The notes: a model not told the origin generated them from the sequence alone. A stretch of DNA of 64,000 nt from a virus (UHGV-1440165); one strand, 5' to 3'; numbered from the stretch's first letter, positions 5,076 to 59,105 are shown. A program made the numbers and translations.

Positions 5076-5139
5076 GTTATAGCCTCATGGTTGAAGGAAT
5101 TACCCGTTCGCGAATTATCACTCGGAACGGGTTATAGAA

Positions 5140-6842: not shown

Positions 6843-6864
6843 AAAGCCCCTCACGGGGCTTTGT
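6841..6864. terminator. bidirectional rho-independent terminator (AGCCCCTCACGGGGCT)
   Basis: Perfect stem flanked by A-run and T-run; stop codon of the minus-strand membrane gene lies inside the loop. Confidence 0.65.
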
Positions 6865-14079: not shown

Positions 14080-14151
14080 CCTGGTATAGTTTAGCGGCAG
14101 AGAGGCAGCACGTCTCTCTGCTCCTTCTAGGCATCCTCAGGGGGTGTGTAA

Positions 14152-14922: not shown

Positions 14923-14927
14923 GATGG

Positions 14928-22710: not shown

Positions 22711-22917
22711 TTAGCTCGGACGAAATCTTACAAACTCGCGAGCCAATTCGGCCTGCTCAGCACTGATGGGAACCCCATGAAAGTCTACCTGACCATTCTT
22801 CCAGCCGTGGATGAAACTCGGGGATTCATCGCCAGACAGGGCATACCCCTTGCGGGACATCTCATACCCGCGCTGGATCTCACTGTCGTCCAGCTTGTTC
22901 AGTTCTTCTAGAGTCAT
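22711..22917 (-). CDS. hypothetical protein (68 aa)
   Basis: ORF. Confidence 0.4.
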   Translation of the reverse strand: MTLEELNKLDDSEIQRGYEMSRKGYALSGDESPSFIHGWKNGQVDFHGVPISAEQAELAREFVRFRPS

Positions 22918-23975
22918 CGTACTTTCCTCAGTTCGGCAAATTGTAATGATGCGGCCATACCCTGGTAGACGTTCTGAGCAATCAGCTTCAGGAGGTCTCG
23001 TATGGCCATGTTACCCTTCGAAGGCATAACCATATCGTTGATGTCCTTCCACGGAATGTTCGGTGGGAAGAGGACGACCTTGACACCTTTATCTATCATC
23101 TTCTGAATACCGTCGCACACTTGAGGGTTTCGGTACTGGTTGTCAGGGATATAGATGTCTCCCTTCACGCTCAGCAAATCCGCATCAGCTGATGCAAGAC
23201 AGTTGGGTAGGAACAGACTGTCAATCGGACCTTCCACGACCAGCTTGGTCTTGTGAATGTTCACCCGGTCTTCACCATACACCTTCGTGTCTTCATCGCG
23301 GGGCTTGACAGTAGAATACCGGAGCACACCATCACGCACTTCAAATGCACGCCCCTGAACGACCTTCATGCGACCATCCTGAGTCCAGAATGGGATTACC
23401 AGGCGCTCGTCATCGGGGATTTTCAGCTGCTTCTCAGGGTTCGTTTCGAACTGGAGTAGATCCTGGCGGAAGTGCTGGGTGTAATACAGGAGGGGCAACG
23501 TGCTCTCCGGCATTCCCCTGCCCTGTACGTACTGTCGAGCCTTATGGTCAGGCGGTAGCAGATCAAGTCTGAGCATATTGCCGAGGAGGCTCTCGTCGCG
23601 TTTAGCCTCCATTGAACCGATACGGGCTGTCTGTGTCAGCTTTGGCAAAGGCTTCAGCGCCGGGAGCGGCTTGGAAGATGAATCACCCAGCAGACGGAAC
23701 TTCTCCATGTTGTACTCGGTGGACAAGCGTTCATCAAACTTCTTCAGCCAGAACTCAAACGCCCAGCCGTTCATCTGGTTGCAGTTGTGGCACTTGAACC
23801 GGAAGCAGTCATGGTCCCGGTCGAAAAAGAAGTACCCACGACGCTTGTTGGCAGACTTCGTGGAGTCACCACACAGGGGGCAGCGGAAGTTCGCAACCGA
23901 TCCCACGCGCTCCCACTTGAACTTGTCAAGGCGCGGTGACACGTTGTTGATAAATTGCTCGTCAAGAAATTTCAT
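22914..23975 (-). CDS. DNA primase (T4 gp61-like, zinc finger + TOPRIM)
   Basis: CPLCGDS...CHNC zinc finger near N-terminus, TOPRIM-like VVEGPIDSLF; start at MKFLDE overlapping upstream stop (TAATG). Confidence 0.65.
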   Translation of the reverse strand: MKFLDEQFINNVSPRLDKFKWERVGSVANFRCPLCGDSTKSANKRRGYFFFDRDHDCFRFKCHNCNQMNGWAFEFWLKKFDERLSTEYNMEKFRLLGDSSSKPLPALKPLPKLTQTARIGSMEAKRDESLLGNMLRLDLLPPDHKARQYVQGRGMPESTLPLLYYTQHFRQDLLQFETNPEKQLKIPDDERLVIPFWTQDGRMKVVQGRAFEVRDGVLRYSTVKPRDEDTKVYGEDRVNIHKTKLVVEGPIDSLFLPNCLASADADLLSVKGDIYIPDNQYRNPQVCDGIQKMIDKGVKVVLFPPNIPWKDINDMVMPSKGNMAIRDLLKLIAQNVYQGMAASLQFAELRKVR

Positions 23976-24586
23976 TAGATCTTCGGCCTCTGGAACACTT
24001 CGGTCACAGTATAGTCTACACCACGACTTTGAGCTATACACAGTTGTCGCCAAGCCCCATACAGGATATTCTGCTCCCCGGCAGTGTTGCGCTCAAAGTG
24101 GGCGAAGCCGTCAAGGAGTTCCATGTAGCTGCGCATATGCCGGGTAACGGTTCTTCCTCTCTTGATCTGTTCATCAAGATACTTCTGATAATGCTCTGGT
24201 GATGACAATGAAGAGTACTGCATGTCTGGCACATGAACTGGCATCAGGGACTTGCGGGGTGTGAAGTAGAACAACCCCCACTTTGGTGGCAGGTCTTCAA
24301 CCCTGATCACGTCCTGAGGGCAGACATAAAAGCGGTATGCGCCCATTCCTGTTGTGGGGTCCATCCGATGGGGCTTCTTCTTGTCAGTGAGGAAGTCGGC
24401 GCGGGACACCTTCACTTCCATCAGGACAGAGCACCCACCTGAACGAAACCCGATGGCATCAGGTGATTCTTTGTTGTCAAACGAATTTGGCTCGATGAAG
24501 ACAGCGCCGCAGTTCATGCGACCGCGCAGGTAGTTGGCCGCGATCTCACATCCTTCACGATGTGTCGGGGTAAAGATTTTGCTCAT
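23975..24586 (-). CDS. PD-(D/E)xK nuclease-fold protein
   Basis: SPDAIGF...VLMEVKV motif; GAAAGGAAAGG RBS. Confidence 0.4.
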   Translation of the reverse strand: MSKIFTPTHREGCEIAANYLRGRMNCGAVFIEPNSFDNKESPDAIGFRSGGCSVLMEVKVSRADFLTDKKKPHRMDPTTGMGAYRFYVCPQDVIRVEDLPPKWGLFYFTPRKSLMPVHVPDMQYSSLSSPEHYQKYLDEQIKRGRTVTRHMRSYMELLDGFAHFERNTAGEQNILYGAWRQLCIAQSRGVDYTVTEVFQRPKI

Positions 24587-26394: not shown

Positions 26395-28398
26395 TCACCA
26401 AACATTCAGAAATAGTGCATGACCCATACCGCCGTTTGACTGAAGAGACCATTTTCCTGTTTCTCTTCCCAGGCGTTCTATGTTGTTGAGTTGGTTTATC
26501 GACAATTCAGAAGAGTCGAATAATACCACATCACGTTTTTTGGGTTCTCTCAAATAAGGTCCGAGATCAATATCAATCATCCGGTTTATAAATTCTACTA
26601 CTTCGGCTTGTTTCTTTGGTAATGTGATATCCGGCCTGTTTGTCACTTTCTCCAAGCGTCTATTTTCTGCGCTTATCATGGACAGCATAATTTGTGTAAC
26701 TTTGCCGTCAGACAAGTTGTAATCGTTCCAAATCACTTCACCTTTATCCGTGATGGTTATATCATTCAAGAAAACCTGGTTTGGGTTGTATGTCTGACTT
26801 TTCAACTGTTGGAGGTTTCTGGAAAGATATTCCATTTTTGATGAGATTTCATCGATCATGGATTGAACAATATCTTTCTTCAAAGTAAGTTCATAGGTCT
26901 TCGGATTGTTCAGGGTACGCCCTTTCTGGGAGACAATTGGGGTGAATGCAACTTTGCCTTTGTCATGATAATAGGTTACGTTGGTTATCATAGAAGTACC
27001 GGCATATTTTCCGGTTTCAGGGAAATTGATTCCAGACCAAGTGATGGACATGCCGTTCTCTGTTTCCCCGAACACTGATGCGTTTTTCGGGATTCGCAGA
27101 TCTTTAGAACTGATTGCATTTGGATTCGGTTCTGCTGCTTTCGCCTGAGGAGCCAACTGATCGATAGCACCCTGTACCACTCCAGTCAATTTGGATGGTT
27201 TGGTGATGTCGATGTCACGGATTACGATAGGCTGGCCGATGGTTTGCCCACCAGGTCCCAATTCTGTAACTGCCTTGACTGTCAAGACAATCGGATCACT
27301 CCCTTTGATGATGCCACGGTTGATTGTGGCCACCACTGCAGATTTACCGCCGAATGTCAAGCTACCAGAGGCCATTGTCATAGAGGATACGCCGCGAAGA
27401 TCATTCACTTTGTAGAATGCGTTCACCAGAGCACGCCAGCGGTCTGTTGTGAGTTCGGCTGCCGTGGTTTGAGCAGGAGCCACAGCCCCAACGCCAAATT
27501 CAACATAAGCCACAATCTTACCACCAGACTTCAGTTCCCAACCCATGCCCTGGCGGTCAGAAGCCGCCATGATTTTGCGATCCACTTCCCCACGACCAAC
27601 ATACTCTTTGTCGAACACAGTTACCTGGGCGATGGTTTGGGTGCGGGCAATCTTCGCCATTGCGCCATCTTTGACCATGATGGCCAGGTCGTTGGAACTC
27701 AGAGTCACATCGTTGGCACCGACCACCTTCACAACAGAACTGAAGATGCCGTTGGATTTTGCCATGACGGAAATGTTCCAGTCTGGATTGTTGGGCGAAG
27801 CCCCCACATCCGGAGTATTGTTCTGAACCGGAACGTCGCCGACCTTGTCTGGATCATCCCAGGTGATGCCCTGCATCTTCGGACCGTCGAATACCTGAGC
27901 CGGATCTTTGCCCTTGCGGACCAGCCACACATAACCACGGTCAGGGACAGGCGCGTAAGTCAGGTCCATGACGTTCAGTTTCTGTTTCAAACCAGACTGA
28001 CGGATGATCTTTGGAATCAGGGTCATACCGCGATCCAGGGCTTTCTTGGAGAAGTTCACAGCATAGCCATCGATAGTCTTGCCAAGAGGAGTCGCCATGA
28101 ATTGTTTGGTCGCTTCGATCATGGAGGCGATGACGCGCATTGGGTTCTTGAAGCGAGCAATAGCGTCAGGGTAGACGGAGCCGCGCTTCTGGCCTATGAA
28201 GACCTGGCGGACATTCTTGCCCAACCCCTGTGGGGTATAGAACTGGATGCGGTATTCTTTTTCATCTTCGTCGATGAAGGTGAAGAACACATCGCCTGCG
28301 TTCTTCTTGCCCATGGTCAGCTCATACGGAGCGGAGTTGAACGCTTCGTCCAACTGATCTCTTTCCTGCATGAACTGGAGGAAACTTGGCTTTGACAT
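26395..28398 (-). CDS. large hypothetical protein (667 aa) with CTS-like N-terminus; candidate capsid-packaged, injected protein
   Basis: N-terminus MSKPSFLQFMQE...LDEAF; size similar to T4 Alt (no catalytic motifs confirmed). Confidence 0.4.
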   Translation of the reverse strand: MSKPSFLQFMQERDQLDEAFNSAPYELTMGKKNAGDVFFTFIDEDEKEYRIQFYTPQGLGKNVRQVFIGQKRGSVYPDAIARFKNPMRVIASMIEATKQFMATPLGKTIDGYAVNFSKKALDRGMTLIPKIIRQSGLKQKLNVMDLTYAPVPDRGYVWLVRKGKDPAQVFDGPKMQGITWDDPDKVGDVPVQNNTPDVGASPNNPDWNISVMAKSNGIFSSVVKVVGANDVTLSSNDLAIMVKDGAMAKIARTQTIAQVTVFDKEYVGRGEVDRKIMAASDRQGMGWELKSGGKIVAYVEFGVGAVAPAQTTAAELTTDRWRALVNAFYKVNDLRGVSSMTMASGSLTFGGKSAVVATINRGIIKGSDPIVLTVKAVTELGPGGQTIGQPIVIRDIDITKPSKLTGVVQGAIDQLAPQAKAAEPNPNAISSKDLRIPKNASVFGETENGMSITWSGINFPETGKYAGTSMITNVTYYHDKGKVAFTPIVSQKGRTLNNPKTYELTLKKDIVQSMIDEISSKMEYLSRNLQQLKSQTYNPNQVFLNDITITDKGEVIWNDYNLSDGKVTQIMLSMISAENRRLEKVTNRPDITLPKKQAEVVEFINRMIDIDLGPYLREPKKRDVVLFDSSELSINQLNNIERLGRETGKWSLQSNGGMGHALFLNVW

Positions 28399-45168: not shown

Positions 45169-47397
45169 TTAGATTTTGATCTCTTTCTCTGCCAGTTCGG
45201 CAGTGACCTTGTACTTCACGCCATCCACTTCAACTTCCATGGTTGACTCTTCCAGGTCGAGGTCGGTGAACCAGCCATGGCCAGCAACGATACCATACAC
45301 CACTTTAGACAGCGTCTTGTTCAGGGCGCGGACTTCAGTGATGGCCGCCTTGGCAGCAGCGTCGATCCAGTTTTCGATCAGCTGTTTCTGTACGGCTTCA
45401 GGCACAGCAGTAATAGCCGGGGACTTCACGAATGCGTCGTATTCTTTCAGTGCATTGGCGATGAACATATCACCCGCATTGAGAGCCTTTTTATCAGCAA
45501 TCTTCTTCTGTACCGCAGCGATGGACGGCAGAGAAGACGCCCCGGCGATCTTAACGTTCAGCTCACGGCTCATGTAGACGTCCGTGGAGTCCTTCAGCTC
45601 GGTCTTCGGTGAGAAGCCATAATCGCGGATACCAACACTAGACAGGTATTCTGCGGCCGCAGCGCCGTACTGAATAGCCAGACCTTTGGCATTACCCTTA
45701 CCAACCAGGGCGTCGCGATAGAACTTCAGTACCTTCTGCTTGCCTTTCAGGGCTTCCAGGCGAACGTTGTCGGCAAAGAACTGTGCAGCACTGATGTTCT
45801 TGACCATCGCACGGTTGACCAGCGGTACGCTTTCCAGGTTCAGAATGAACACTTCCGGACCAACGAACACGTGGACGCCCATTTCGATCAACTTCTGCAC
45901 AACTTCGATATCAGCCTTGAACGGCAGGGTCTTCACATTGATGATGCCGTCTTTGACGATGGTGTAGTTGCGCCACTGGAATGTGTCCAATTCTTCGGGT
46001 AGACCGAACTTCTTCTGAGCGAATTCGGGCACCGCCACAGTTCCATGCTGGATTGTACGCACACTGATGTTCGGGCGCTCAGAGTTATAGACCAGGTCGC
46101 TGATTGAGATCACGCCCAGATCGTTAGCAGGTTCAAACGACGGTGTCCACTCTTCGTGCTCAGCCAGCTTGAGAGCGAGGGCTTTACGCTCTTCTTTGGA
46201 CTTGGCGTTCGCGATTTCTTCCGCCAGCTTGTCTTCGGTATCATCGGCTTTCTGCACAGTACCGCGACCAATGCTCTTGTAGGAGAACATCGGGTGCTTG
46301 GTGGCAACAGACACGCCAGCTTCGGCCAGGTACGTCAGCACATCAACGACAGTGGTCGCATCTTCAGCCGGAACCATATTGTAGTCGATACCGTCCACGC
46401 CGCGCAGCTGATCATCAACGATGGCCTGGGTCAGATCAACTTTGATGTTGGAGTAGTCCTGCTTGGTGAAGCAGTTGCTGTACTGTTTGATGAAGCGGAC
46501 GTCGCCCGTTTTCTTCAGCGCAGCCCACACCAGGTCGGCGTCCATGATGTGTACGCCGTAGAACGCCAGCACGTATGCTGCCTGGATGTCCGTCAGCGCA
46601 TCAAGCTGGTCGATCATGTTAGGGTTGACGACCCACAGCTTCGTGACGCTCTCAGGGATGCTCACGTGGCCGATAGGATGGTCTTCATCCGGCTGTACCG
46701 CCAGCACGGTTGCTACGCCGTTTTCAACGTAGATGGCGTGAGTGTACACCACAGGAACGTCAACACGAACCTTCGGCACCGAGGACTTCAACACGTTTTC
46801 CAGCTCAGTCTGATATTCAGTCTGTCCTTCGGCGAACACGTGAGTCGCGCCGGAACGCTCGGACATCTGGGCCAGGAGTTCGCGGTTACAGTACCAGCCG
46901 TATTCGATAAAGGTGATGTTATCGAAAACAAATGGCAAGGTTTCGGCGACGGCCAGGATTTCATTGGAGCGCCAGCAGTTGTCATAACCATCGGTCATGA
47001 ACGCCAGGTTGTTGACGTAGCCGGGTTTCTTCAGGCTACGCGCAGTATCTACCGCGAGACCCAGGGGTTCGACGAAGCCAGTGCAACCGGATGGTTGCAG
47101 GAAGCGGTCGATCAGTTTGTTCAGCTCGCTCAGGTCAGACGCAGCACTGACCTGGCGGCCAGCGAACACAGTACCAAAGTCGCCACGGGATGAGAAGTAC
47201 AGGAGGCTCACTGTGTCTTCCGGTTTCACCAGGGAAGGCAGGTTCTCCTTCAGGTGCTTACGGACTTCAGGGAGCGCCCGGTACATGGAACCGGAAATGT
47301 CCACAACGATTACATGGTTGGACGGGGCAGCAGTCGCAACCGCATTCTTAAACTCCAGGGATTCAATCATCGTTATTGCCTTCTTCAGGGTTGTCAT
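45169..47397 (-). CDS. large von Willebrand factor A (vWA) domain protein
   Basis: N-terminal MIDAS motif VVDISGSM; ~740 aa; start at MTTLKK with GGAAGGTGAGG RBS. Confidence 0.55.
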   Translation of the reverse strand: MTTLKKAITMIESLEFKNAVATAAPSNHVIVVDISGSMYRALPEVRKHLKENLPSLVKPEDTVSLLYFSSRGDFGTVFAGRQVSAASDLSELNKLIDRFLQPSGCTGFVEPLGLAVDTARSLKKPGYVNNLAFMTDGYDNCWRSNEILAVAETLPFVFDNITFIEYGWYCNRELLAQMSERSGATHVFAEGQTEYQTELENVLKSSVPKVRVDVPVVYTHAIYVENGVATVLAVQPDEDHPIGHVSIPESVTKLWVVNPNMIDQLDALTDIQAAYVLAFYGVHIMDADLVWAALKKTGDVRFIKQYSNCFTKQDYSNIKVDLTQAIVDDQLRGVDGIDYNMVPAEDATTVVDVLTYLAEAGVSVATKHPMFSYKSIGRGTVQKADDTEDKLAEEIANAKSKEERKALALKLAEHEEWTPSFEPANDLGVISISDLVYNSERPNISVRTIQHGTVAVPEFAQKKFGLPEELDTFQWRNYTIVKDGIINVKTLPFKADIEVVQKLIEMGVHVFVGPEVFILNLESVPLVNRAMVKNISAAQFFADNVRLEALKGKQKVLKFYRDALVGKGNAKGLAIQYGAAAAEYLSSVGIRDYGFSPKTELKDSTDVYMSRELNVKIAGASSLPSIAAVQKKIADKKALNAGDMFIANALKEYDAFVKSPAITAVPEAVQKQLIENWIDAAAKAAITEVRALNKTLSKVVYGIVAGHGWFTDLDLEESTMEVEVDGVKYKVTAELAEKEIKI

Positions 47398-47550
47398 CGG
47401 CCTCACCTTCCGGATTGACCAGCATGTGTTCAACGAATTCGCGATTCAGCTCAATCTGGCTCATCAGCGCATCCGTCGGAGTAAAGCGGCGGTCGAGGTT
47501 ATCGACACCCGCACGTTTAAATGGTTTGGACATTCCTCGACCTCAAAACA

Positions 47551-47574: not shown

Positions 47575-49239
47575 TTAGATTTGTGAGGCCAGTTCTGCCA
47601 CCAGAGGAGCAGCACGAACACGCGCATCTTCCAGAGTCTGAGTGTTGAAGAACTTGCCATCACGGTACACCAGTTGGTGTTGGTTGTCGGCGTCTTGCAC
47701 CTGATCAAAGGTGATGCCGTCAACCAACACTAGTTTACCCTGAGAGTCTTTAATGACTTTAAGGAAACCACGCGCAGACTTTTTAGTCCCGCCTTTGTCG
47801 GTCTTCGGCTCTTTGAAGATCTCGCGGAATTCACCGTTCACCTTACCAGCCGTCGCTTTCACTGCCGTTCCAGTACTGTCACGGGTGTTCATCTGGTAGG
47901 TGTAGGAACCAATACCGAAGACCACGTTAATGGAAGCGAAGTTCCGGCCAGCCAGACGACCAAAGATCTGGTCTTCACGTGCCAATGTGATAGAGTCACC
48001 GTAGATCAGACCGATGTGATCGTCCAACAGGAAGTGGCCAGTCTCAGTTTGAGTACCGCCAAAGATCTCCCACAGGCGCTGAATAGAGCCGACTGCTTCA
48101 GAACGGCTGATGATATTACTGTCGTCTGCCATCAGAGAGTTGATCGTACCTTCGCCTGTGATCAGGTGATAGGTGTTCGTCTCTTCGATGTGGATGACTT
48201 CGGTGCTGCTGGACACGCCGCTGATGTTCAGCATAGCGCGGTCTTTGAACCCCTCGATGCGGTAGCCGCCGACGATGTGAACTGGGTCGCCAGAGTCAGG
48301 GCGGATCACGACTTTGCCGTTGCGTGCCATGATAATGTCTTTCAGGCGAGGGAGATAGTCGTCGATGACCTGCCAATAGTCCCACGCATCCGACACAATG
48401 CTGACGATGCCATCAGGATACACGTCCTGCACCAGGCGACGGAAGGTTTCGAATTCTCCATTCTTCGTACCCATGCACATCACGGCGTGTTCGGTGGCTG
48501 CAACGGAGCCAGCAACGACATAGTCTTCATCGATATCCGCGCCGTAATACTCTTCAACGAAGTCCAGGGCAGGGTTGGTGTCAGTGCCTTTGAAGAACAC
48601 CAGATGGCCAGAACCGGAAGACGCCGCGTCATGCCATCCGCTCATACCACGGAAGGAGAAGTCGTGGCCTTGGTAATCGATGAACCAATGGTCCGGTGAC
48701 ACGCCTGTGGCGATAGCGGCTTTCACCATCAGTGCCTTGTAATGCAGGGCGATGGTGGCGTTCGTCATGGGCTTCCAGATCTCAGAGCTGAACACAGTCT
48801 CCAGATAGTTGGTCAGCCAGTAGAACTCCGGCAAGGTGTTGAACATCACATACACCGGAACGCCATACGGGCACATGGTGCCTTCGGGTAGAGCACGGAC
48901 TTCGATAGGCAGATAACCGAGGTCATGCAGGGCTTCGATATGCTCTGTGCCAACACGACCTGGACCCAGTACTTTGTTCATGCGACGGGCATACTTCTTC
49001 AACACCTTGGCCTTCGGGCGCTGGAAGAACGCTTCGTCAAACAGTTCGTGGAACCAGGTCATGAAACCCTGGATGCCCCAGACCACCACGCCGTTCTTCG
49101 GCAGGTGAGAGTTGAATAATTTGTTGGAACGCGGAGTCCCGTTGGAGAACACCAGCTCACTACCTTCAGGGAACTGATAGATGTGCCCTGATTTGTAGAA
49201 GTCGATTGCATGAATTGGGTCTAAGTGGCGCATGCTCAT
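47575..49239 (-). CDS. nicotinamide phosphoribosyltransferase-family enzyme (NadV/NAMPT-like; candidate NARP1 Namat)
   Basis: Full-length NAMPT-like sequence (554 aa) read from the translation; no single motif checked. Confidence 0.75.
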   Translation of the reverse strand: MSMRHLDPIHAIDFYKSGHIYQFPEGSELVFSNGTPRSNKLFNSHLPKNGVVVWGIQGFMTWFHELFDEAFFQRPKAKVLKKYARRMNKVLGPGRVGTEHIEALHDLGYLPIEVRALPEGTMCPYGVPVYVMFNTLPEFYWLTNYLETVFSSEIWKPMTNATIALHYKALMVKAAIATGVSPDHWFIDYQGHDFSFRGMSGWHDAASSGSGHLVFFKGTDTNPALDFVEEYYGADIDEDYVVAGSVAATEHAVMCMGTKNGEFETFRRLVQDVYPDGIVSIVSDAWDYWQVIDDYLPRLKDIIMARNGKVVIRPDSGDPVHIVGGYRIEGFKDRAMLNISGVSSSTEVIHIEETNTYHLITGEGTINSLMADDSNIISRSEAVGSIQRLWEIFGGTQTETGHFLLDDHIGLIYGDSITLAREDQIFGRLAGRNFASINVVFGIGSYTYQMNTRDSTGTAVKATAGKVNGEFREIFKEPKTDKGGTKKSARGFLKVIKDSQGKLVLVDGITFDQVQDADNQHQLVYRDGKFFNTQTLEDARVRAAPLVAELASQI

Positions 49240-50090
49240 TTTACACGTCCTGTATTTTCAGTTTTGAAAGGAAGACCGTCGGCGGTGATGTTCTCCCACC
49301 AGACAGTGTCGGCATACACAGCATCGTAGATCCCGTCGAAAACAGAGAGACCTTTGCTGAAGATGCCATGGGTAACGAAGAGCGTCATGTGCTTAGGCTT
49401 GTGCTTCTGAAGCTCTTTACCCAGCTCAACAAACGTGCGCCCACCGTCGCAGATATCATCAACCACAACCAGATAGCGGTCTTTGATCAGTTCAGGGTTT
49501 GTAATACTCACCCCAATGATTTCACCAGTCTTGGTGTCACGGTTCTTGTGTCCGTAGACAACAGGAACGCCATCCAATGACAGGCTGAGGGTTTCGGTCT
49601 TCTTCGCCGCGCCGCCGTCAGGGGCTACCAGCACAGCATTGTTCCCACGGATGAACCAGCCCAGATACTGGCGCACGATGTGATCTTGTGGGACCACATG
49701 GACGTTGTTGATCAGGGAAGACACAACATGGCTGTGAGGGTCTTTGATCGCCACGCGGTCAAAGTTCATGTTGTTGATGAACTCAGCCGCCCACTTCACG
49801 GACAGAGGCTCGCCGAAGTCGCAATGGCGGTCCTGGCGAGCATACGGGAAGTAAGGGATATACGCATGGAAGGTAGTCAGACGGTCCACGTTACCCAGGC
49901 CGCGCACGGCGTTTACCAGAAGCGCCAGCTCAATGAAGTCGGCTGATGATTTGATGTGAGCATCAATCACCACGTTCTGGACGTGACCGACAGGGATGCC
50001 AGCCTTTTGGATCTTGATATGTTCCTCACCACCTGGGAAGGTGAAGTGCTTGTAGAACACATCTTGGTCGTTCAATTTCAAACGAAACAT
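49236..50090 (-). CDS. ribose-phosphate pyrophosphokinase-family enzyme (Prs-like; candidate NARP1 Adps)
   Basis: PRPP-binding motif VVVDDICDGGRT; 284 aa; ATGA-coupled to NAMPT-like gene. Confidence 0.75.
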   Translation of the reverse strand: MFRLKLNDQDVFYKHFTFPGGEEHIKIQKAGIPVGHVQNVVIDAHIKSSADFIELALLVNAVRGLGNVDRLTTFHAYIPYFPYARQDRHCDFGEPLSVKWAAEFINNMNFDRVAIKDPHSHVVSSLINNVHVVPQDHIVRQYLGWFIRGNNAVLVAPDGGAAKKTETLSLSLDGVPVVYGHKNRDTKTGEIIGVSITNPELIKDRYLVVVDDICDGGRTFVELGKELQKHKPKHMTLFVTHGIFSKGLSVFDGIYDAVYADTVWWENITADGLPFKTENTGRVK

Positions 50091-50200: not shown

Positions 50201-50995
50201 TTATTTGTAGGAATCGACGATGGCCTTGAACAGCGCGTCCTTCTGATCAGTTGGGATATAATTCGCCGGAGCCAGCAAGAGTCGCCTTATGTGTTCACAG
50301 CAGTCTTTCTGTTCTTCAGCGCTCATCTTATCCCAGGTGACAGCATTGAAGTAGATCCCGCCCTTGTAAGCCGCCATGCACGTCTTGGCCAGGCGAACAA
50401 CGAGTTCGGAATACAGCTCATCGGGATGCATGTATGAACGCAAATATGCTTCCACTCCAGCTTGGGCTGTGCTGTTGTGTAGATCGTTGTATCGTTCATT
50501 GTCGGTGCGAACCAAGCCAGCAACGAACCCTCGACTCGGATCTCGTGGATGTCGGAACACGAAAGACTGGCCGTGGCCTTGTAGGAATTCCGCCCCAGCC
50601 ATCTGATTTATCGTCCCTCTTTCGGAGACATACTGGAAGATGTCTATCTTCGCATCGGCGGTAGCCACCTCCAGCATCTGCTTCTCTACGACGGCGCGGT
50701 AGGCTTCCAGTTCCCACAGCTGGGAAAAGGTCTTGTCATAGGCCAGCTTCTTACCCAACTCTTCATCAAAGTTGGCGGGGTCGATAGAGGTGGAGCTATT
50801 CTTACCCCAAACGACAAAGCCGTTGTCCATCTTGAAGTGGCAGGTTATAACGCGATGGCCGCCGACTTCACGGTCTTCATAGATGACTTCGGCAATGTGG
50901 GACTTCAGAAGATCTGGGGACAGCCTCAGACCTTCTCGAACAGATTTACCCTTCAGTTCCACACCTTTGGGTTCATTACGATTGATGGTTGCCAT
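50201..50995 (-). CDS. hypothetical protein (264 aa)
   Basis: ORF. Confidence 0.5.
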   Translation of the reverse strand: MATINRNEPKGVELKGKSVREGLRLSPDLLKSHIAEVIYEDREVGGHRVITCHFKMDNGFVVWGKNSSTSIDPANFDEELGKKLAYDKTFSQLWELEAYRAVVEKQMLEVATADAKIDIFQYVSERGTINQMAGAEFLQGHGQSFVFRHPRDPSRGFVAGLVRTDNERYNDLHNSTAQAGVEAYLRSYMHPDELYSELVVRLAKTCMAAYKGGIYFNAVTWDKMSAEEQKDCCEHIRRLLLAPANYIPTDQKDALFKAIVDSYK

Positions 50996-51017: not shown

Positions 51018-51039
51018 AACCCCGCACAAGGCGGGGTTA
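51018..51039 (-). terminator. rho-independent terminator (AACCCCGCCTTGTGCGGGGTT)
   Basis: Stem-loop plus U-run on minus strand. Confidence 0.6.
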
Positions 51040-51059: not shown

Positions 51060-51431
51060 TTATTTCAGCAGCGCTTCCAGTTCTTCAACAGATTTGCCTT
51101 CCAACTCCTGCTGTTTCTTACGCTGGATCAGCTCCAGGATAACCTGGTTGTTCGCCTTACGCTCTGCCGCGTCTTTGCTGTCATCACGCTCTTTCAGCTT
51201 GACGCCGATGATGTGCTTGACAACGTCGAAGCGCAGCTGCAGTTCGGAGTCAACGTTGCTTTTGGTGCCGATGAAATCTTCTTCATCGGTTTCCGCTGCC
51301 TTCACCTGACGGCTCAGGCTTTTCGCCATTTCGTTCAGGGCAGTCAGGCTCAGGTCCCAAACCTGCTCAACAGACAGCAGACCTTTGTTAGACTCGAAGC
51401 GCAGTTTCAGACGGGTTACTTTATCAAACAT
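51060..51431 (-). CDS. hypothetical coiled-coil protein (123 aa)
   Basis: ORF. Confidence 0.45.
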   Translation of the reverse strand: MFDKVTRLKLRFESNKGLLSVEQVWDLSLTALNEMAKSLSRQVKAAETDEEDFIGTKSNVDSELQLRFDVVKHIIGVKLKERDDSKDAAERKANNQVILELIQRKKQQELEGKSVEELEALLK

Positions 51432-51477: not shown

Positions 51478-53496
51478 TTAGAACACAACTTTCACAGTAC
51501 GGTTGAACGAGCCGCTCACCTTCACGAACACGTGGTTGCGTTGGGTGGTAGAGAAGCCCAGTCCGGACAGCTGCTCAGTGCTTGGCTGTACCTTAATCTT
51601 ACTACCTAACATTTCAAAAACCTTACGGTGTTTATCCAGTTCCGGCTTCAGATATTCGTTGTAGAAGCCACGGGTGCCGACCGGGTTGGCACAACCTTCC
51701 AGGATGAAGAACACGTGCTTGTTGCCCGTCTGCTCGCCGTCCCAATGGTTTGGTGAGTTCAGAACCAGTTGCACCTTCTGGAAGACTGAGGTCTTGATAC
51801 CCCAGATTTCCTGGGAGCGAGCGTCGTCTTTCAGGGTCGAACTGATGCCTGTCAATTGTCCAGCGCGGACGTGGAGCACAACAGCCAGGGTGCGGTCTTT
51901 ATGCTTCAGACCGGGATGTGAGAAGCGCTTGGTCTGCCCTTTGTATTCGACTTCAATTTCAAAGCCCATATCGCAGGTTTCACGCTGGCTGAAGTTGGTG
52001 ACATAGAACTCATAGTCGCCATCGCGCAGCTTGCGCTCATCGCTGAAGAAGATGTTCTCGACCGGGCGACGATTTGGATCAATACCGTCCATGCCGTTCA
52101 TGTCGATGTCCAGGGTTGCGCCAGTTGCTGAACGACGGTTGTGGTAATACACATGGTTGTGCAGCGGATCGTTCATGCTCAGGTCCAGGTCATCGTTGTT
52201 GTGCCAAGCCAGGGACACCCGGAGGAAGCTGTCAACGTTGCCACCAGCGGTCTTCACGCGCTCTTTGATGGAGTCAGCCACTTCACCGTTGTATGACCAG
52301 CTGAAGCCGTTGTTCCACTTGAACAGGTTAGGAGCGCCAGCGGTAGCCGGAGCAATCAGAGACATCAGGTTGCCAGTGTGGGAGTTCTCAACCAGCACTT
52401 CCAGGGAATGCGCCTTTGGCAGCACGTTCGTCAGGAAGTCATCGATAGTGATCTCTTCAACCTTATCCAGGGACTTGGTTGGAGTCTTCACTTCAGACGC
52501 CAGCTGAGCAAACGGGTCCATCTTCTTCTGAGCCGCCAGGTCGGCGAACAGAACGTTGTTGATGGTCAGATCGTCATACACGGCATAACGGCGACCCAGT
52601 GAATCGGTCAGACCCAGCGCTTCAACTTCTTTCTGCGCGTTTTCGATCATCGACTTGGTCACCAGCGCAGTTGGGCGCTTGTAGTTCGTCGGAGCTACTT
52701 TGGCTTCGAAAGACTTGACGGCGGTTTCCAGGTCGCGGCCTTCGTTGAGGTCTACCAACAGAGAGCCAATCACGGTATTACGAATGCCGTGAGGGGTATG
52801 ACCGTTCGCACGATAGCCAGTGCGCCAAGCCCACAGAGCGCGTTTCTCTTCTGCAGTCTGTTCGTACAGGGTCTTGTTCACCACGAACGCCTGCACTGCC
52901 GCCTTGTGCTCTTCACCGCGATACAGAGAATTCTGATCAATCAGTTCCAGGACGATTTCGGCCGATTCCAGAGACAGCTCACGCAGACCGCGCTCAAACA
53001 CTTCGATCGCCTGGCGGATTTCACCCTTCTTAGAAGCGATGCCATCAGCGCGCAGAACATAGCTGCCCAGCAGATCGGCATGGAAGTGGTTATAAGTGCG
53101 CACGTTGCCGTCTTTCATTTCGTGATTCGACTCAACGCCGACTTTCTTGGTGTCGTTGAAGTATACGTCGACGATTGCGTGCTGTTTAACATACGCCGAC
53201 AGCGCCGCCGCAACAACATCGTATTCGTTACCCAGCTGAATGCCGTCCCAGATAGTAATCATTTCGTAATCAGGGGTGATGGTGACCACGCCGCCGATGT
53301 TACGGATGAATTGTTTGCAGCAGGTGCAGTCGTGCTCGGTGCGCTCACGGTAAAGCGGGTTAGTGCCCGCAGGGAAAGAAGACAGATACAGATCCCACAG
53401 AGCATCTTTATCGGTGTTGGTCATGAACAGACCAGTTGCTGACATGGCCAGCACGTTGTTGTTTACGGCTACTGCGAAGGGCTTGAATTGTGACAT
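51478..53496 (-). CDS. large hypothetical protein (672 aa)
   Basis: AGGAAG RBS; N-terminal HDCTCC cysteine cluster; no family recognised. Confidence 0.55.
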   Translation of the reverse strand: MSQFKPFAVAVNNNVLAMSATGLFMTNTDKDALWDLYLSSFPAGTNPLYRERTEHDCTCCKQFIRNIGGVVTITPDYEMITIWDGIQLGNEYDVVAAALSAYVKQHAIVDVYFNDTKKVGVESNHEMKDGNVRTYNHFHADLLGSYVLRADGIASKKGEIRQAIEVFERGLRELSLESAEIVLELIDQNSLYRGEEHKAAVQAFVVNKTLYEQTAEEKRALWAWRTGYRANGHTPHGIRNTVIGSLLVDLNEGRDLETAVKSFEAKVAPTNYKRPTALVTKSMIENAQKEVEALGLTDSLGRRYAVYDDLTINNVLFADLAAQKKMDPFAQLASEVKTPTKSLDKVEEITIDDFLTNVLPKAHSLEVLVENSHTGNLMSLIAPATAGAPNLFKWNNGFSWSYNGEVADSIKERVKTAGGNVDSFLRVSLAWHNNDDLDLSMNDPLHNHVYYHNRRSATGATLDIDMNGMDGIDPNRRPVENIFFSDERKLRDGDYEFYVTNFSQRETCDMGFEIEVEYKGQTKRFSHPGLKHKDRTLAVVLHVRAGQLTGISSTLKDDARSQEIWGIKTSVFQKVQLVLNSPNHWDGEQTGNKHVFFILEGCANPVGTRGFYNEYLKPELDKHRKVFEMLGSKIKVQPSTEQLSGLGFSTTQRNHVFVKVSGSFNRTVKVVF

Positions 53497-53611
53497 GATG
53501 TAGTCTTCCTGTTTCAGTTCAAATGTGCGCCCCGTTTGCCAGGGCGCTTCGTTTAAGTGAGGTCAATAATACGTTGAAAAGAGTTATTGAAGAATGAAGT
53601 AAAGGGAATCT

Positions 53612-54832
53612 TTATTCAGGTTTCTTCAAACGATCAAGGAGATTGACAGAGCTGCGACCGAGCACAACTTCATCACAGCGCTTCTTGTAAGCACCACTTC
53701 CGTCATAACCGACCTTACCCCGAGGCTTATCTCCCCGTTGAACGGCTTCTACGCAGCGGGTGTACTTGCTCAGTTCACAGAACATGTTCTCCAGCTGCAT
53801 GACGTTCATACACTGATCTTCCGGGGCTTCAGCCGACCAGAACTGCTCCCGGACATAACCATAGTCCCCGTAAATCGAATCCTGGTGGTCACGCAGCCAG
53901 AAGATACATTCTTCATGCGTCATGCCGTCCTTGTTCAGGAACAACAGGTCGATCCCAGCGCGGCAACCCGGTCCAGCGATAGTGAAATGGTTCTCACTGA
54001 ACGGATACTCAGGAATGTACGTGAAGTCCACCCAGATCTGATAGGCCAGGAATGGACCCAAGCCTTCGATTTCGTCGTACATGGCCTGGTAGACTTCATC
54101 CGGAGATTCGCATTCCAGCAGCCGCTCGAAGTAATCAGGGTGCTTGTTGACGAATGCCCTCAGAGAACGGATGACGCGCATCGGCATGTACGGTTCCCAA
54201 CCCTCAATGGTGTAGAAGTCCGGCTCTGCTTCAGCAATTGCCTTCGCTTCTTTATAATCCATATTCTGGGTTGAACCGTCTTTGCAGATCAGATTCACCA
54301 TCATCCCACCGAAGCGCTGCTCCTTGTGGTTGACAACCAGCTCAGGGAAAGCCAGGCATTGCTTCAGGCCGCCCGTGTTGAAAGCATTGGTGAAGACTTT
54401 GCCGCCGTTGGCCTCGAACTTCTGTAAACGTTCGCGGGTCGCGTCAAGGTTGATCTTGGCGAAGTCGGAGATCGTCATCGCGCCGCCGATAGCCTGGATC
54501 GGATCCCAGAGGTTAAACATGCGGAACAACACGCAGTTGAACATCTTATCCGGCATAGACAGCGCATCGTTGTTAACGATGTTGTTGATTAGGTTGAGAG
54601 ACTGCCTGTCGTGCTCTCTCCGGACGTTGCAGAACTTGACCTGCCGTAGTATGGCATTATCCGTCCAAGGAGCAGGAAGACGCTGGACGTCCTTCTTAAC
54701 GTGGATCTTGTATCGCTCGCTCATCCATTCGTAAGAAAGACGACGATGAAACGGACTGAGCACGGGCTTGGCGGACTTGATTTTATCTTCGCGGACACCA
54801 CAATAAGGGATGTCACGGGCTTTATCTTTCAT
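53612..54832 (-). CDS. hypothetical protein (406 aa), candidate DNA-modification enzyme
   Basis: Start MKDKAR with GAGGA RBS; family not confirmed. Confidence 0.5.
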   Translation of the reverse strand: MKDKARDIPYCGVREDKIKSAKPVLSPFHRRLSYEWMSERYKIHVKKDVQRLPAPWTDNAILRQVKFCNVRREHDRQSLNLINNIVNNDALSMPDKMFNCVLFRMFNLWDPIQAIGGAMTISDFAKINLDATRERLQKFEANGGKVFTNAFNTGGLKQCLAFPELVVNHKEQRFGGMMVNLICKDGSTQNMDYKEAKAIAEAEPDFYTIEGWEPYMPMRVIRSLRAFVNKHPDYFERLLECESPDEVYQAMYDEIEGLGPFLAYQIWVDFTYIPEYPFSENHFTIAGPGCRAGIDLLFLNKDGMTHEECIFWLRDHQDSIYGDYGYVREQFWSAEAPEDQCMNVMQLENMFCELSKYTRCVEAVQRGDKPRGKVGYDGSGAYKKRCDEVVLGRSSVNLLDRLKKPE

Positions 54833-54901
54833 GGTATCCTCACAGAATACGAAAACAGAGGCCATTATAAGCCTCTGCTGTTTAGTGAATAACTGGTTGT
54901 C

Positions 54902-55774
54902 TTAATCGATACGGGTCAGCTGGGTGATCGATGGAGTGATCGGAGTAGCGACGAACACGCGGACGTTAGCTTTCCATTTACCCCAGATCAGTGGCACGTC
55001 TGGCATGTTCTCTTTGTCAAACACAAACACCGGAACATAGCTTTCCATCGCTGTATCAGCATGCGCCTGGAAGCCAGGTTCCATGTACTGCATGATAGAA
55101 CGGACGAAGTCGAATGGGGCGAACCCGACACCAGCTTGTTCGTTGAAGCCGATCTGACCAGAATCGGCAGTGGCGGTCAGGATGATCTCAGTGATCTGAT
55201 GCTTAGGGGTAGCCGTCAGCATATCGGAGAAGTCAGGCTCTTTGAAGGTGGCCATGTTCTTCAGGAACTTCCCAGCCGGGTACTCTTTACCGTCGACGGT
55301 GATGGTGTCAACCACCTTGATGCAAGCCTGAGGGAATTCGCCTTCGATGCGCAGACTTTCACGTGGGAAGCCTTTATCGTAATAGTAGTCCAGCGCTGGC
55401 ACAACTTCATCCATGCTGCGGACGAACTTGCTCATGTTAGAGGCATACACGCGCTGTAAGCATTCATCGCCGTCGAAACCAGCAATGTGCGCCACGCCGT
55501 CGTTGACAGTTGTGATGTCGCCCTGGGCATCCATGATCTGGCGCATGATGTCTTTGGTGTCTACGATGGCAGGGGCGTCGCTCGGCTTAGGATTGACCGT
55601 CAGAGTCAAAGTCACATCGTGGTCAAAGAACGCCGCTTCCAGCAGTTCACGAGTTTCTTCCAGCACCAGTTTGGCCTGGTTGCGGATCTTTGCGAAGTTG
55701 GGCGACGTCACATCGCCCTTTGCATTACCGAAAGCCAGATTCAGTTTCACGTTCTTGTCAAATGTAGTTGTCAT
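54902..55774 (-). CDS. hypothetical protein (290 aa)
   Basis: Start MTTTFDK. Confidence 0.45.
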   Translation of the reverse strand: MTTTFDKNVKLNLAFGNAKGDVTSPNFAKIRNQAKLVLEETRELLEAAFFDHDVTLTLTVNPKPSDAPAIVDTKDIMRQIMDAQGDITTVNDGVAHIAGFDGDECLQRVYASNMSKFVRSMDEVVPALDYYYDKGFPRESLRIEGEFPQACIKVVDTITVDGKEYPAGKFLKNMATFKEPDFSDMLTATPKHQITEIILTATADSGQIGFNEQAGVGFAPFDFVRSIMQYMEPGFQAHADTAMESYVPVFVFDKENMPDVPLIWGKWKANVRVFVATPITPSITQLTRID

Positions 55775-55790
55775 AATATAGCGACTCCAG

Positions 55791-56255
55791 TTATTCGCTT
55801 TTGGCCTTCGTAGGCCGGATGATGTATTTTGGAACCAGCTTCCATTCAGGAACCTGATCATGTTTGACCACTTTGATGCGAGACATATCGGCGGCCTCAG
55901 TGATCTGCTCAGGGTTCAGAACCTTCAACATGTTCCACTGCTCCAGCAGCTTGATGATGCGGTTCATTCGCAGGATGTCCTCACGGTTGAAGCCGTTGTA
56001 GTGGCCATCCAGCATGAACAGATGCTTGAAGTGAACGATATAATACTTGCCATACTTATGAAGAATATGACAAGTCTGGTACAGAGTATTCGGCTCTTGG
56101 CGCGTGTTTACCCCAATTCGGCTCAGTGTTTCCTTGATCCCCAGGAAGATCCCTGGCCGATCTTGGTTCAATTGAACTTCAACCATACAATCAACGATGC
56201 TGGCCTCATCGTTGACGGCTGAAATGTTCAATATGTCTAGCGTATTGCGCGCCAT
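55791..56255 (-). CDS. regA: translational repressor RegA
   Basis: TLYQTCHILHKYGKYYIVHFKHLFMLDG matches T4 RegA VLYQSCHILQKKGLYYIVHFKEMLRMDG; C-terminal EWKLVPKYIIR matches. Confidence 0.8.
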   Translation of the reverse strand: MARNTLDILNISAVNDEASIVDCMVEVQLNQDRPGIFLGIKETLSRIGVNTRQEPNTLYQTCHILHKYGKYYIVHFKHLFMLDGHYNGFNREDILRMNRIIKLLEQWNMLKVLNPEQITEAADMSRIKVVKHDQVPEWKLVPKYIIRPTKAKSE

Positions 56256-56284: not shown

Positions 56285-56707
56285 CTACTTAGCCTTGCGC
56301 GGTTTCGCTTTGGCGTTCAACTCAGTACGTCCCATCTTCTCGCGTATCTCGGCCAGGACTTCCTGCGGCAAGAAACGGACGTACTCGGATGCCTTCTCCA
56401 TACTGATGTAGAAGTATTCGGACAGCATCTTCACATCAGGGTCTACAGCGCCCTTCTTAGACCATTTGTCATAACGTTTACGCGCCGGAATGGAATGAAA
56501 GGCGTATGACCATTGCATCCATGGAGTGATAGCATGCAGCTTATTCATCTGCTGTGCAAACACCAGAGTATCTTTGCTCTGGGCGAGACCACGCCGCGTC
56601 ATGAACGGGTCGAACCCCTTCTGCACTTCCGGATCATCGGTTTGCAGAAGGTTCTCTTTGCTGCTGTTCAGGGCAGACAGATAATCGAACAATCCAGGTG
56701 CGGCCAT
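56285..56707 (-). CDS. clamp loader small subunit (T4 gp62-like)
   Basis: Position between regA and gp44; ARKRYDKWSKK resembles gp62 RGKRYGKWAKL. Confidence 0.5.
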   Translation of the reverse strand: MAAPGLFDYLSALNSSKENLLQTDDPEVQKGFDPFMTRRGLAQSKDTLVFAQQMNKLHAITPWMQWSYAFHSIPARKRYDKWSKKGAVDPDVKMLSEYFYISMEKASEYVRFLPQEVLAEIREKMGRTELNAKAKPRKAK

Positions 56708-56711
56708 AGTA

Positions 56712-57701
56712 TCACTTCCACTTGATGTTGAGCATGATGTTGGTCAGGAAGTACACGGCATGCAGCCATACGTCCCCAACCTGACGGTGCTCAATTTGAG
56801 ACTGACCGCAGACACAGACAAGGTCAGGGATAGACTCAGTCTGTACAGACATCGGCTTCTCTTTGTCCTGTGGTACACAGAACTGGAAGAAGCGGGAATA
56901 GAAGTCTTCGGTGATGTAGTTCTGATTGTCAGTCACCCACTGCTTCATGCCAGCCCAGTCATTGGCTTTCAGCATGCCGACCAGAGTGCCGAGGTCAGCC
57001 GCTTTCAACACAGCCAGGGCGCGTTCGTCAATCTTACCGAACGTGGTGACGTTGTCCTGCAGCGTACCCATGATGCGGCGGTTGTCGGGGAAATGGCGCT
57101 TAACGATAGCAGCCAGAACCTGTGGAACGAATTCAACGTTTTCGGCTCTGAGGATTTCAACGCAGCGCAGACAGAATTTACCCTGAACTTCCAGCGCTTC
57201 CTGCTCGTTCCAGATGAAGTCGATCTCACGGCAACGCGAGCGCAGAGGTTCGTTGACACGCTGCTTGGCGTTCGTGGTCAGGATAAAGGAGCAGTTCTTT
57301 GAGACCTTCTCTACGATACCCTTCAGGGATTCCTGCGCCGACATAGACAGGCGCTCAACTTCGTCGAGGATAACGACTTTGCGGCCGCCGAAGACGCTCA
57401 CGCCCGTAGAATACTGAATGACGCGATCACGGATAACATCGATGCTGTTGTCCAGGGATGCGTTGATAAACAGAGGTTGCTTACAACCGATCTCATTACA
57501 CACGGCCAGAGCAGTAGTGGTCTTGCCCGTACCCGGCTGAGGGGAGTAGAACAGCATGGACGGGATGTTGCCGCTGCCGCTGGTAATGTACCCATGGATT
57601 TTAGCGCGGACGTCCTGAGGGATGATGATCTCATCGAGGTTGTCAGGTCTGTACTTGTTCTCCCACGCATATTGGTCGGACACGATAGTGATATTGGACA
57701 T
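56712..57701 (-). CDS. clamp loader large subunit, AAA+ ATPase (T4 gp44-like)
   Basis: Walker A PQPGTGKTT; Walker B VVILDEVE; RFC-like. Confidence 0.8.
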   Translation of the reverse strand: MSNITIVSDQYAWENKYRPDNLDEIIIPQDVRAKIHGYITSGSGNIPSMLFYSPQPGTGKTTTALAVCNEIGCKQPLFINASLDNSIDVIRDRVIQYSTGVSVFGGRKVVILDEVERLSMSAQESLKGIVEKVSKNCSFILTTNAKQRVNEPLRSRCREIDFIWNEQEALEVQGKFCLRCVEILRAENVEFVPQVLAAIVKRHFPDNRRIMGTLQDNVTTFGKIDERALAVLKAADLGTLVGMLKANDWAGMKQWVTDNQNYITEDFYSRFFQFCVPQDKEKPMSVQTESIPDLVCVCGQSQIEHRQVGDVWLHAVYFLTNIMLNIKWK

Positions 57702-58357
57702 TATGAATTCCCATGATATAGTTTACAGAATAGAACCCAAGCACTGTCATTATATGGGTTCCAACCTTCTTTGAATTTGTTTATCATACTCATTGCAGTG
57801 TTCTCTTTTATTGAGAACAAACGAGCAATTTTACGACAACCATCTCCGGTTTTCAACCAATGTAAGTAAACATCGCCCGATTTCAACCACATTGGTCTAG
57901 TGTTATGCAACAACGCAGCCCCTGTGTCCCAAGGGTTTATACCGAACACCGGATGAGAAGAACCTTTCCTACCGTTCATCGGATGTTCTTTCCCTTTCTT
58001 TCCTTTTAGCCAACCAGGCTTTCCCCTTCTGTGATGGTTTGGTCCTGCTGCTCTTCCGTTAGCCACAGAACACCCTTCCGGTTGAAACATCAAGTTTAAA
58101 CAGAGAGGATTTTGTGAATGTTCTGAAATGAGTTTCTGTTCTTTCCAATATGCATCTTCTGGAGAGTCGAACAATTCTACAAATATCACATCAAAGAAAT
58201 CAGAACCTTTCTTAGATATGATTTCCTTGACCGTTTGTGAAGAAGTGAAATACGAAGTGAACAATTGTAAAGGATGCGCACCCAATTTCGTTCTAGAACC
58301 AAAATAGAAAGAACCATCCTTTCCTAACAAATGATATACAAACGGTTGGTTCCTCAT
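57701..58357 (-). mobile_element. free-standing GIY-YIG homing endonuclease gene (Seg-like)
   Basis: N-terminal VYHLLGKDGSFYFGS (GIY-X10-YIG spacing); inserted between clamp-loader and clamp genes. Confidence 0.5.
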
Positions 58358-58436
58358 TTCAGCCTCTTGTAGAAGAATCATTTCAAATGGGCGGGAAAGC
58401 CCCGCCCACACATTATAGCATCAGGCTGGAGATTGA

Positions 58437-59105
58437 TTACTCAATCTGCGCGCCGACGAAGTAATTGATCGTCGCGTCGGAGGACTGGAAGTTAACCATC
58501 TGCAGTTCAGCACAGGCACGGAGCGTGTAGTTGCCTTCGATCATCTTCAGGTTGGCAACGTCCAGAGGCATAACAAAGTCGCTCATGGCGGTTTCGCCCA
58601 GCTCTACGGTGTAGTTGTTGGAGTTGTCCAGGCCAGTAGTAGTCGCCACCATGCGGGTTTTGCCACCCTGAGCAACCAGGCGAACTGTTTTGTGGCCGAG
58701 GGTAGAACACGCACGAGTCAGTTCTTTCATCTTCTCTGGAGTGATGATCGCTTCAAAGTCGACGGAAGGCAGTTCGATGGTGTCAGCCGGGACCACAGTC
58801 AGTTCTTTGGCGGAACGCCAGAACTGCAGTTGAGAGCTTTCGCCTTTCAGCAGGATGTAGTCCTGATGGAATTCGGCTTTCGCGCCTTTAAAGGAAGGCA
58901 GACGCTGAATGGCCAGCAGCTTGGTCAGGTCCAGAATAGGGAATTCAAACGGGAAGTCTTCTTCGATCTGCGCAACGGCGATCACAGTAGAAGAATCGTT
59001 GATGCTGCGCAGCATTTTACCCGGTGTCAGAACGATAGAAGGGTTGATGGTCTCAAAGTTGGCCAGCAACTGAAGTGTACGTTCGGAGAGAGTGATCTCT
59101 TGCAT
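58437..59105 (-). CDS. sliding clamp (T4 gp45-like)
   Basis: N-terminal LLANFETINPSIVL resembles gp45 LLKNFATINSGIML; 222 aa; gene order 45-44-62-regA. Confidence 0.65.
   Translation of the reverse strand: MQEITLSERTLQLLANFETINPSIVLTPGKMLRSINDSSTVIAVAQIEEDFPFEFPILDLTKLLAIQRLPSFKGAKAEFHQDYILLKGESSQLQFWRSAKELTVVPADTIELPSVDFEAIITPEKMKELTRACSTLGHKTVRLVAQGGKTRMVATTTGLDNSNNYTVELGETAMSDFVMPLDVANLKMIEGNYTLRACAELQMVNFQSSDATINYFVGAQIE

Follow-up and report, generated by a model that had tools for sequence, protein, structure and literature searches.

Three probably separate units, rather than one system, adjoin regA in an Agtrevirus-like Ackermannviridae phage

The 64,000-nucleotide (nt) stretch of virus UHGV-1440165, referred to throughout as the window, carries at positions 51478-55774 three minus-strand open reading frames (ORFs) that adjoin the replication genes regA-62-44-45 and that a preliminary description, made from the sequence alone, had put forward as candidate downstream enzymes of DNA hypermodification. 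These are here labelled A (51478-53496, 672 amino acids (aa)), B (53612-54832, 406 aa) and C (54902-55774, 290 aa), and all three are present with the lengths and positions first given for them. We find that the interval is not one system: it comprises three units of an Ackermannviridae phage, set apart by transcriptional punctuation. Probably, B is a gene of the thymidine-hypermodification set, C is a MazG-type enzyme, and A forms, with a small partner gene, an independent cassette. In megablast comparisons the window is Agtrevirus-like (that is, ViI-like), with 94.5% identity to Salmonella phage pSal-SNUABM-02 and ~88% identity to the Agtrevirus phages SKML-39, Ag3 and MK-13.

The punctuation consists of stable RNA hairpins on the minus strand. 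Between C and B a hairpin followed by a U-rich tract is terminator-like (54854-54879; -16.2 kcal/mol, z -5.2), between B and A lies a second hairpin (53527-53547; -17.6 kcal/mol, z -4.6) whose stability was reached in 0 of 200 shuffles, and an intrinsic-terminator-like hairpin with a U tract closes the unit formed by A and its partner (51018-51038; -18.3 kcal/mol, z -3.5). Two of the ORFs extend beyond the starts used here: that of B continues to an upstream ATG at 54865 (53612-54865, 417 aa), with the 406-aa form beginning at M12 (nt 54832) in agreement with the ViI start, and that of C continues to 55861 (54902-55861, 319 aa), with the 290-aa form starting at nt 55774, just beyond the regA stop at 55791.

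B matches the Pfam family PF18723 (HMUDK_hel, "5-hmdU DNA kinase, helical domain", where 5-hmdU is 5-hydroxymethyldeoxyuridine; earlier "aGPT-Pplase clade 1") at E 1e-82 (278 bits, cut-off 25). The match covers residues 43-376 of the 417-aa translation and positions 6-280 of the 281 in the profile, and PF18723 is carried by 120 of the 120 listed homologues of B. It is 82% identical over 407 aa, that is over its full length, to ViI Vi01_130c (orf00160, gp160), and both genes are placed between a DUF8224 gene and the MazG-like gene, regA, 62 and 44; nothing material differs between the two proteins, which are orthologues. Lee et al. (2018, Table 3) list ViI gp160 as "aG/PT-PPlase1", and in their work lysates of gp67, gp160, gp226, gp243 and gp247 jointly made 5-(2-aminoethoxy)methyldeoxyuridine (5-NeOmdU) from 5-hmdU DNA. 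The genome that encodes B also carries, within the window, a 5-hmdU DNA kinase and a dUMP hydroxymethylase gene. Among the matches listed, B-type genes occur only in Ackermannviridae/ViI-like, Vibrio, M6/YuA-like, Microbacterium and a few other phages, and in Stenotrophomonas phage Sonora the match covers features annotated as an aGPT pyrophosphorylase and a nucleotide kinase. An Agtrevirus genome paper already names the orthologue of B aGPT-Pplase1. In Klebsiella virus vB_KpnM-20 a homologue bears the name "phospholipid-lipopolysaccharide ABC transporter", which looks wrong.

B thus belongs to the known gene set for thymidine hypermodification, but to PF18723 and not to PF18724, the family of the proven amino-acid:DNA transferases. 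The proposal of an aGPT-Pplase-type transferase pointed to the right gene neighborhood: B lies in the former clade 1 of that name, though outside the transferase family, and hidden Markov model (HMM) searches returned the clade 1 match for B and no match to a pyridoxal-phosphate (PLP)-dependent or glycosyltransferase profile for A, B or C. The clade-2 amino-acid:DNA transferases (ADDT, PF18724: ViI gp247, M6 gp51 and PaMx11 gp46) and the B family have in common that they are encoded by 5-hmdU-hypermodifying phages, that the ViI orthologue of B, gp160, is predicted in the literature to share a DNA-glycosylase-like fold with gp247, and that a Cys-Glu pair is invariant in the family of B. They differ in that B has no PF18724 match, which ViI gp247 has at 3e-58, and in that hhalign finds nothing in common between gp247 and a profile built from 23 members of the B family (probability 0.1).

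The known pathway to which B belongs turns 5-hmdU in replicated DNA into 5-(2-aminoethoxy)methyldeoxyuridine: a P-loop kinase phosphorylates the hydroxymethyl group, a clade-2 transferase of the gp247 type adds serine, and a PLP enzyme then decarboxylates the product. B corresponds to the helix-hairpin-helix-type "helical domain" which in some phages is fused to the 5-hmdU DNA kinase and which here stands on its own, and it would act on DNA alongside the kinase, either as a DNA-binding or base-presenting accessory or as a second transferase of unknown specificity. Residues invariant in the family include R71-R72-E73-D75-R76, C290 and C352-E353, a pattern of polar residues and cysteines that would fit an enzyme or a specific DNA binder. 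The second option, in which B is an active transferase of a further amino acid or other nucleophile to DNA, for a minor or context-specific modification, and not a passive accessory of the kinase, appears unlikely to us. Phage SP10 speaks for it, with only a B-type domain (gp186C) and no clade-2 enzyme listed and yet making glutamyl-thymine, as do C352-E353 and C290, which recall the essential Cys and neighboring Glu of the clade-2 enzymes; these residues, however, cannot be aligned to the clade-2 active-site Cys and Glu, the missing PF18724 match and profile similarity to gp247 count against it as well, and the literature reports a single hypermodified base for ViI. The literature also tempers any role for B in the pathway: gp160 is given no separate role or activity, the 2021 follow-up assigned the chemistry to the kinases, gp247 (the serine:DNA transferase, clade 2) and gp226 (the PLP decarboxylase), and the SP10 kinase was active without its fused C-terminal domain. 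With the kinase domain alone and gp247 sufficing in vitro, the pathway may not need B, or B may have another task.

C is predicted to consist of a MazG-like all-alpha NTP pyrophosphohydrolase region (residues ~1-186) and a C-terminal domain (~190-290) that is found only in Ackermannviridae. It matches phrog_2144 ("MazG-like pyrophosphatase") at E 2e-125 and phrog_671 (MazG-like/NTP pyrophosphohydrolase) at E 5e-21 and is named MazG-like in RefSeq relatives, so that the label "unassigned", apt for a reading without tools, holds neither for C nor for B with its strong Pfam match. In tblastn searches the first ~186 aa share 50-55% identity with a 182-aa protein of N4-like phages named "nucleotide pyrophosphohydrolase" and 31% with Pseudomonas SM1 gp125 (E 4e-18). 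SM1 gp125 in turn matches Pfam PRA-PH with 31.6 bits (cut-off 21.3; 2e-7) and MazG with 22 bits (cut-off 22; 2e-4). The acidic motifs E39-E40-x-x-E43 (EExxE) and D82-x-x-x-D86 (DxxxD) reproduce the MazG metal-binding pattern, and E40, E43, D82, D86, N113 and K116 are invariant, the distant N4-like and SM1 homologues included. C is thus predicted, from its sequence, to be a MazG-type enzyme of the nucleotide pool and not a DNA-level modification enzyme. It shares the EExxE/DxxxD motifs with the MazG/PRA-PH enzymes, to which it is joined by transitive homology through SM1 gp125, and it shares with gp18 of Acinetobacter phage SH-Ab 15599 that each is encoded in a 5-hmdU phage; unlike these proteins it gives no direct profile match, and it has an extra conserved ~70-aa segment and the Ackermannviridae-only C-terminal ~100 aa.

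C may trim the dNTP pool, most plausibly of dTTP and/or dUTP, and so let 5-hmdUTP be incorporated. Such clearing is plausible because gp18 of phage SH-Ab 15599, of the dUTPase/dCTPase fold, a related one, has been shown to be a dTTPase/dUTPase and because dTTPase activity is classical for 5-hmdU phages. Several results weaken the assignment or the role. Searches of Pfam, NCBIfam and the PDB, the last also with the family HMM, gave no direct match; the hhalign comparison with E. coli MazG is insignificant, though the EETxE stretch aligns; and the AF2 model, with a mean pLDDT of 48 and predicted helices at 27-48, 73-86, 108-115 and 121-133, is unreliable. N4-like and Pseudomonas phages, absent from the listed matches of B, have the catalytic domain as well, which weakens the dTTPase idea, and the dTTP/dUTP clearing could fall instead to the dUTPase_2 encoded elsewhere in the window. 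It is accordingly a serious possibility, though one to which we give somewhat less than even weight, that C is a MazG-type enzyme of general use to phages, serving in house-cleaning or in the removal of alarmones or signaling nucleotides, and not one that clears dTTP/dUTP for the hydroxymethyluracil pathway. The close N4-like and 31% identical SM1 domains favor this, as does the presence of dUTPase_2, the dTTPase proposed by Kutter (2011); against it stand the position of C next to B in all Ackermannviridae examined, its own family-specific C-terminal domain, and the proven dTTPase/dUTPase of related fold in phage 15599.

A is a member of DUF8224 (PF26675; PHROG 1735), the match to phrog_1735 having E 0 over residues 1-672 and the PF26675 assignment being made through homologues annotated PF26675/DUF8224. 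The family comprises 4798 clusters at 50% identity, nearly all of ~670 aa and full-length, and relatives outside Ackermannviridae, including those in bacteria of several phyla, are ~40-50% identical to A; it has no described function, and we found no mention of it in the papers searched. The chain is laid out as an N-terminal region of ~400 aa, a predicted TerD-like beta-sandwich at ~420-560 and a C-terminal alpha/beta domain. The HDCTCC cluster noticed at first sight corresponds to residues 55-60 and contains C57 and C60, which as C57-x2-C60, together with H137, are invariant in an alignment of 41 sequences (39-52% identity). The N-terminal region would be the working module, with a putative CxxC/His metal site, and the TerD-like sandwich, which has acidic DDLDL and LDxDMN motifs, may form a Ca2+-binding regulatory part. 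Homologues of 530-550 aa from jumbo and other phages match only the N-terminal ~400 residues and gave no Pfam clue of their own. In the ViI record the DUF8224 gene lies in two ORFs (Vi01_128c/129c, locus record 13301-15320) and in Dickeya phage RC-2014 in three, as a result of either sequencing frameshifts or real decay; this split accounts for the extra fragment families PHROGs 23228, 25920 and 21434.

Directly downstream of A, at 51060-51431 on the minus strand, lies the gene of its 123-aa partner (phrog_2018). This protein is helical and charged, and near its N-terminus it has a conserved motif of F2, R11, F12, G17, E22, L27, L29 and T30. A homologue of this partner immediately follows the DUF8224 gene in metagenomic phage contigs, N4-like Pokken, Caulobacter CcrSwift, Micromonospora and Salinispora. 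An HMM scan of 80 bacterial loci shows it abutting the DUF8224 gene on the same strand in 78, less than 140 bp of contig being left in the remaining two, and it is present in all eight full-length phage loci. The short 530-550-aa homologues lack it, and the N-terminal module thus also exists in proteins without a partner gene. No third conserved neighbor was found: across the 26 locus groups, no other family recurs in more than three. A itself was detected by tblastn in 549 phage records, among them Caulobacter phiCbK-like, Bacillus, Xanthomonas, Vibrio, N4-like Stenotrophomonas, Lu11 and Microcystis phages, and, with an alignment of its closer relatives, in 160 bacterial genome stretches (many Micromonosporaceae, myxobacteria, Bradyrhizobium, Clostridia and cyanobacterial relatives). 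A and the 123-aa gene are thus an autonomous two-gene cassette common to many unrelated phages and bacteria. Since the pair occurs in groups absent from the listed matches of B, such as the Caulobacter, Bacillus, Xanthomonas and N4-like carriers, A does not appear to be tied to thymine hypermodification.

In Micromonosporaceae the cassette is present in 38 sampled loci of Actinoplanes, Micromonospora, Salinispora, Dactylosporangium and related genera. Their DUF8224 proteins form one group linked at >=60% identity, and two loci that were checked, one of Micromonospora and one of Salinispora, have housekeeping neighbors (a SpoU methylase, an SDR and a sigma factor); this single group and these neighbors suggest vertical inheritance of the cassette in the family.

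What the cassette does can be proposed only tentatively. We put it forward, at somewhat less than even confidence, that DUF8224 and its obligatory ~125-aa partner make up an undescribed two-component enzyme module, with a metal-dependent (CxxC/His) N-terminus and a Ca2+-binding TerD-like domain, which is common to bacterial chromosomes (those of nearly all sampled Micromonosporaceae, for example) and at least 12 unrelated phage lineages and whose target during infection would be a substrate common to all cells. The TerD assignment comes from the predicted structure, and structure prediction, which the preliminary description had recommended, helped with this sandwich and failed for C. Sequence-profile support for the fold is insignificant: hhalign against the TerD profile gave E 0.04 and a probability of 1.3%, with the expected motif aligned, and no Pfam TerD match appeared even at E 10. 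From the Ca2+-binding TerD proteins (Klebsiella TerD, 2kxt; Streptomyces SCO6318, 2qz7) A further differs in that its domain sits inside a 672-aa multidomain protein and has no ter-operon context. For the N-terminal 400 aa, PDB, Foldseek and BFVD searches yielded no functional clue, which like the insignificant TerD profile score speaks against the proposal; for A as a whole, nothing informative came from Pfam (also segment-wise at E 10), NCBIfam, the PDB (phmmer and family HMM) or PADLOC, and with the whole-chain model Foldseek found nothing in the PDB below E 0.038 and BFVD gave only uncharacterized phage proteins.

Three further readings have been weighed against the division into separate units. 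That A, B and C are all downstream hypermodification enzymes acting on 5-hmdU or 5-phosphomethyldeoxyuridine (5-PmdU) DNA is, to our judgment, scarcely credible. The genes are adjacent, B has its place in the ViI hypermodification list, and a hydroxymethylase and a kinase are encoded in the same window; yet A and its partner are found in many phages and bacteria that are not among the listed matches of B, C is of a type that acts on soluble nucleotides and is also found in N4-like phages, stable hairpins part the three units, and PLP, glycosyltransferase and PF18724 matches are lacking. For A this reading is largely refuted by the distribution of the gene. As candidates for hypermodification the three ORFs thus fared differently: the idea holds for B, through PF18723 and its orthology to ViI gp160, it is plausible for C as a pool enzyme, and it fails for A. 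A second reading, that A is a phage RNA polymerase, has in its favor the product name deposited for homologues in Shigella phages Gloob and ChubbyThor; no support for that name was found, and we practically discount it. The entry concerned, Gloob gp123 (locus record 3466-5484), is named "putative DNA-directed RNA polymerase", which looks wrong.

The third reading takes in the genes beyond A, all on the minus strand. A 554-aa NAPRTase-family (NAMPT-like) protein (47575-49239) and a 284-aa Prs-like protein (49236-50090) are encoded with a 4-nt overlap, and the pair looks like NARP1, the phage NAD+ reconstitution pair of Namat and Adps described in recent papers. Adjoining it is a 264-aa protein with an N4 gp49/Sf6 gp66 domain (50201-50995; PF13876, E 6e-12); in a mycobacteriophage the gene inserted in the NARP1 locus is a RyR-domain cADPR glycosidase. 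Beyond the pair lies a 754-aa vWA-domain protein (45169-47433; PHROG 2426). T4-like phages of the KP15/Lw1 type, from Klebsiella and Escherichia, share it at ~49% identity, and Rhizobium phages have more distant forms. It is very unlikely that A works with the NAD+-salvage genes or the vWA protein in a Ter-like or NAD-linked counter-defense module. Such a module is suggested by the NAMPT-like and Prs-like genes lying 1.4-4 kb from A here and near an A homologue in one Flavobacteriaceae contig, by a short A homologue near NMNAT and PnuC in Vibrio phage D69, and by reports that in bacteria the ter operons bring together TerD, vWA proteins and enzymes of the phosphoribosyl type. ViI, however, has A and its partner and no NAMPT/Prs pair at this locus, so that the pair is an insertion in the Agtrevirus-like lineage; NAMPT-like genes occur in 1889 phage records with a spread unlike that of A; and neither the neighbor families, which recur in at most 3 of the 26 locus groups, nor PADLOC, which gave no match, point to a module. 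Taken singly, a link of A to the NAMPT/Prs pair was rejected on the pair's absence at the ViI locus and its far wider spread, and one to the vWA protein on the differing phage distributions.

The division into a hypermodification-set gene, a MazG-type enzyme and an independent cassette sits within a locus whose order is ordinary for the family. Profile matches support each gene of the order regA-62-44-45, as first described: regA (55791-56255; PF01818, E 3e-33), gp62 (56285-56707; PF16790), gp44 (56712-57701; Gp44_lid) and gp45 (58437-59105), the last by a weak gp45-slide_C match (E 7e-4) and by the name sliding clamp in relatives. A UvsW-type helicase also lies upstream of A, B and C, after gp45, and the gene order is likewise annotated in ViI, SKML-39, Gloob and CAU_YEP3. 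Between gp44 and gp45 sits an additional 236-aa ORF (57701-58411, minus strand) that has no Pfam match and is not present in ViI or SKML-39; in Yersinia phage CAU_YEP3 a gene in the same gap is annotated as a homing endonuclease. That phage has another small gene so annotated (locus record 6802-7020), which separates its DUF8224 gene from its B orthologue and so occupies the gap that in the window holds the stable B-A hairpin.

The observation that gene 43, the DNA polymerase gene that flanks regA in T4, is missing here is borne out, no ORF of T4 gp43 size being found within the window, and so is that of no polymerase, ligase or NrdD signature in A, B or C, for which no such profile matched in Pfam, NCBIfam, PHROGs or the PDB. 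The ViI polymerase lies ~55 kb from the locus, beside the second kinase gp243 and the transferase gp247, and the lack of gene 43 here therefore reflects a rearrangement seen throughout the family and not a replacement. The true genes of the pathway are at the start of the window, again on the minus strand: the gp67-type P-loop 5-hmdU DNA kinase, which is the true kinase of the pathway of B (2464-3138; PF18748 HMUDK_HMUD1, E 1.8e-108), the thymidylate-synthase-like protein, a ViI-like dUMP hydroxymethylase (1415-2464; PF00303, E 8e-16) of the kind that Kutter (2011) grouped with the hmdUra synthases, and the dimeric all-alpha dUTPase_2 (310-852; PF08761, E 7e-8), the other candidate for dTTP/dUTP clearing. 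Three more minus-strand ORFs, at 26395-28398, 22914-24053 and 3202-4218 (667, 379 and 338 aa), are without a Pfam match.

B and C matter little in themselves, since their orthologues in ViI-like phages have already been listed or annotated and both are ordinary for the family; a useful correction is that B is of the PF18723 "kinase helical domain" type and not of the proven amino-acid:DNA transferase type. Of more use is the DUF8224 cassette. It offers experimental handles in the form of an autonomous two-gene unit, a predicted TerD-like domain and an invariant CxxC/His putative site, and it represents a large family that always takes one small partner gene along and is well kept between enterobacterial phages and several bacterial phyla.

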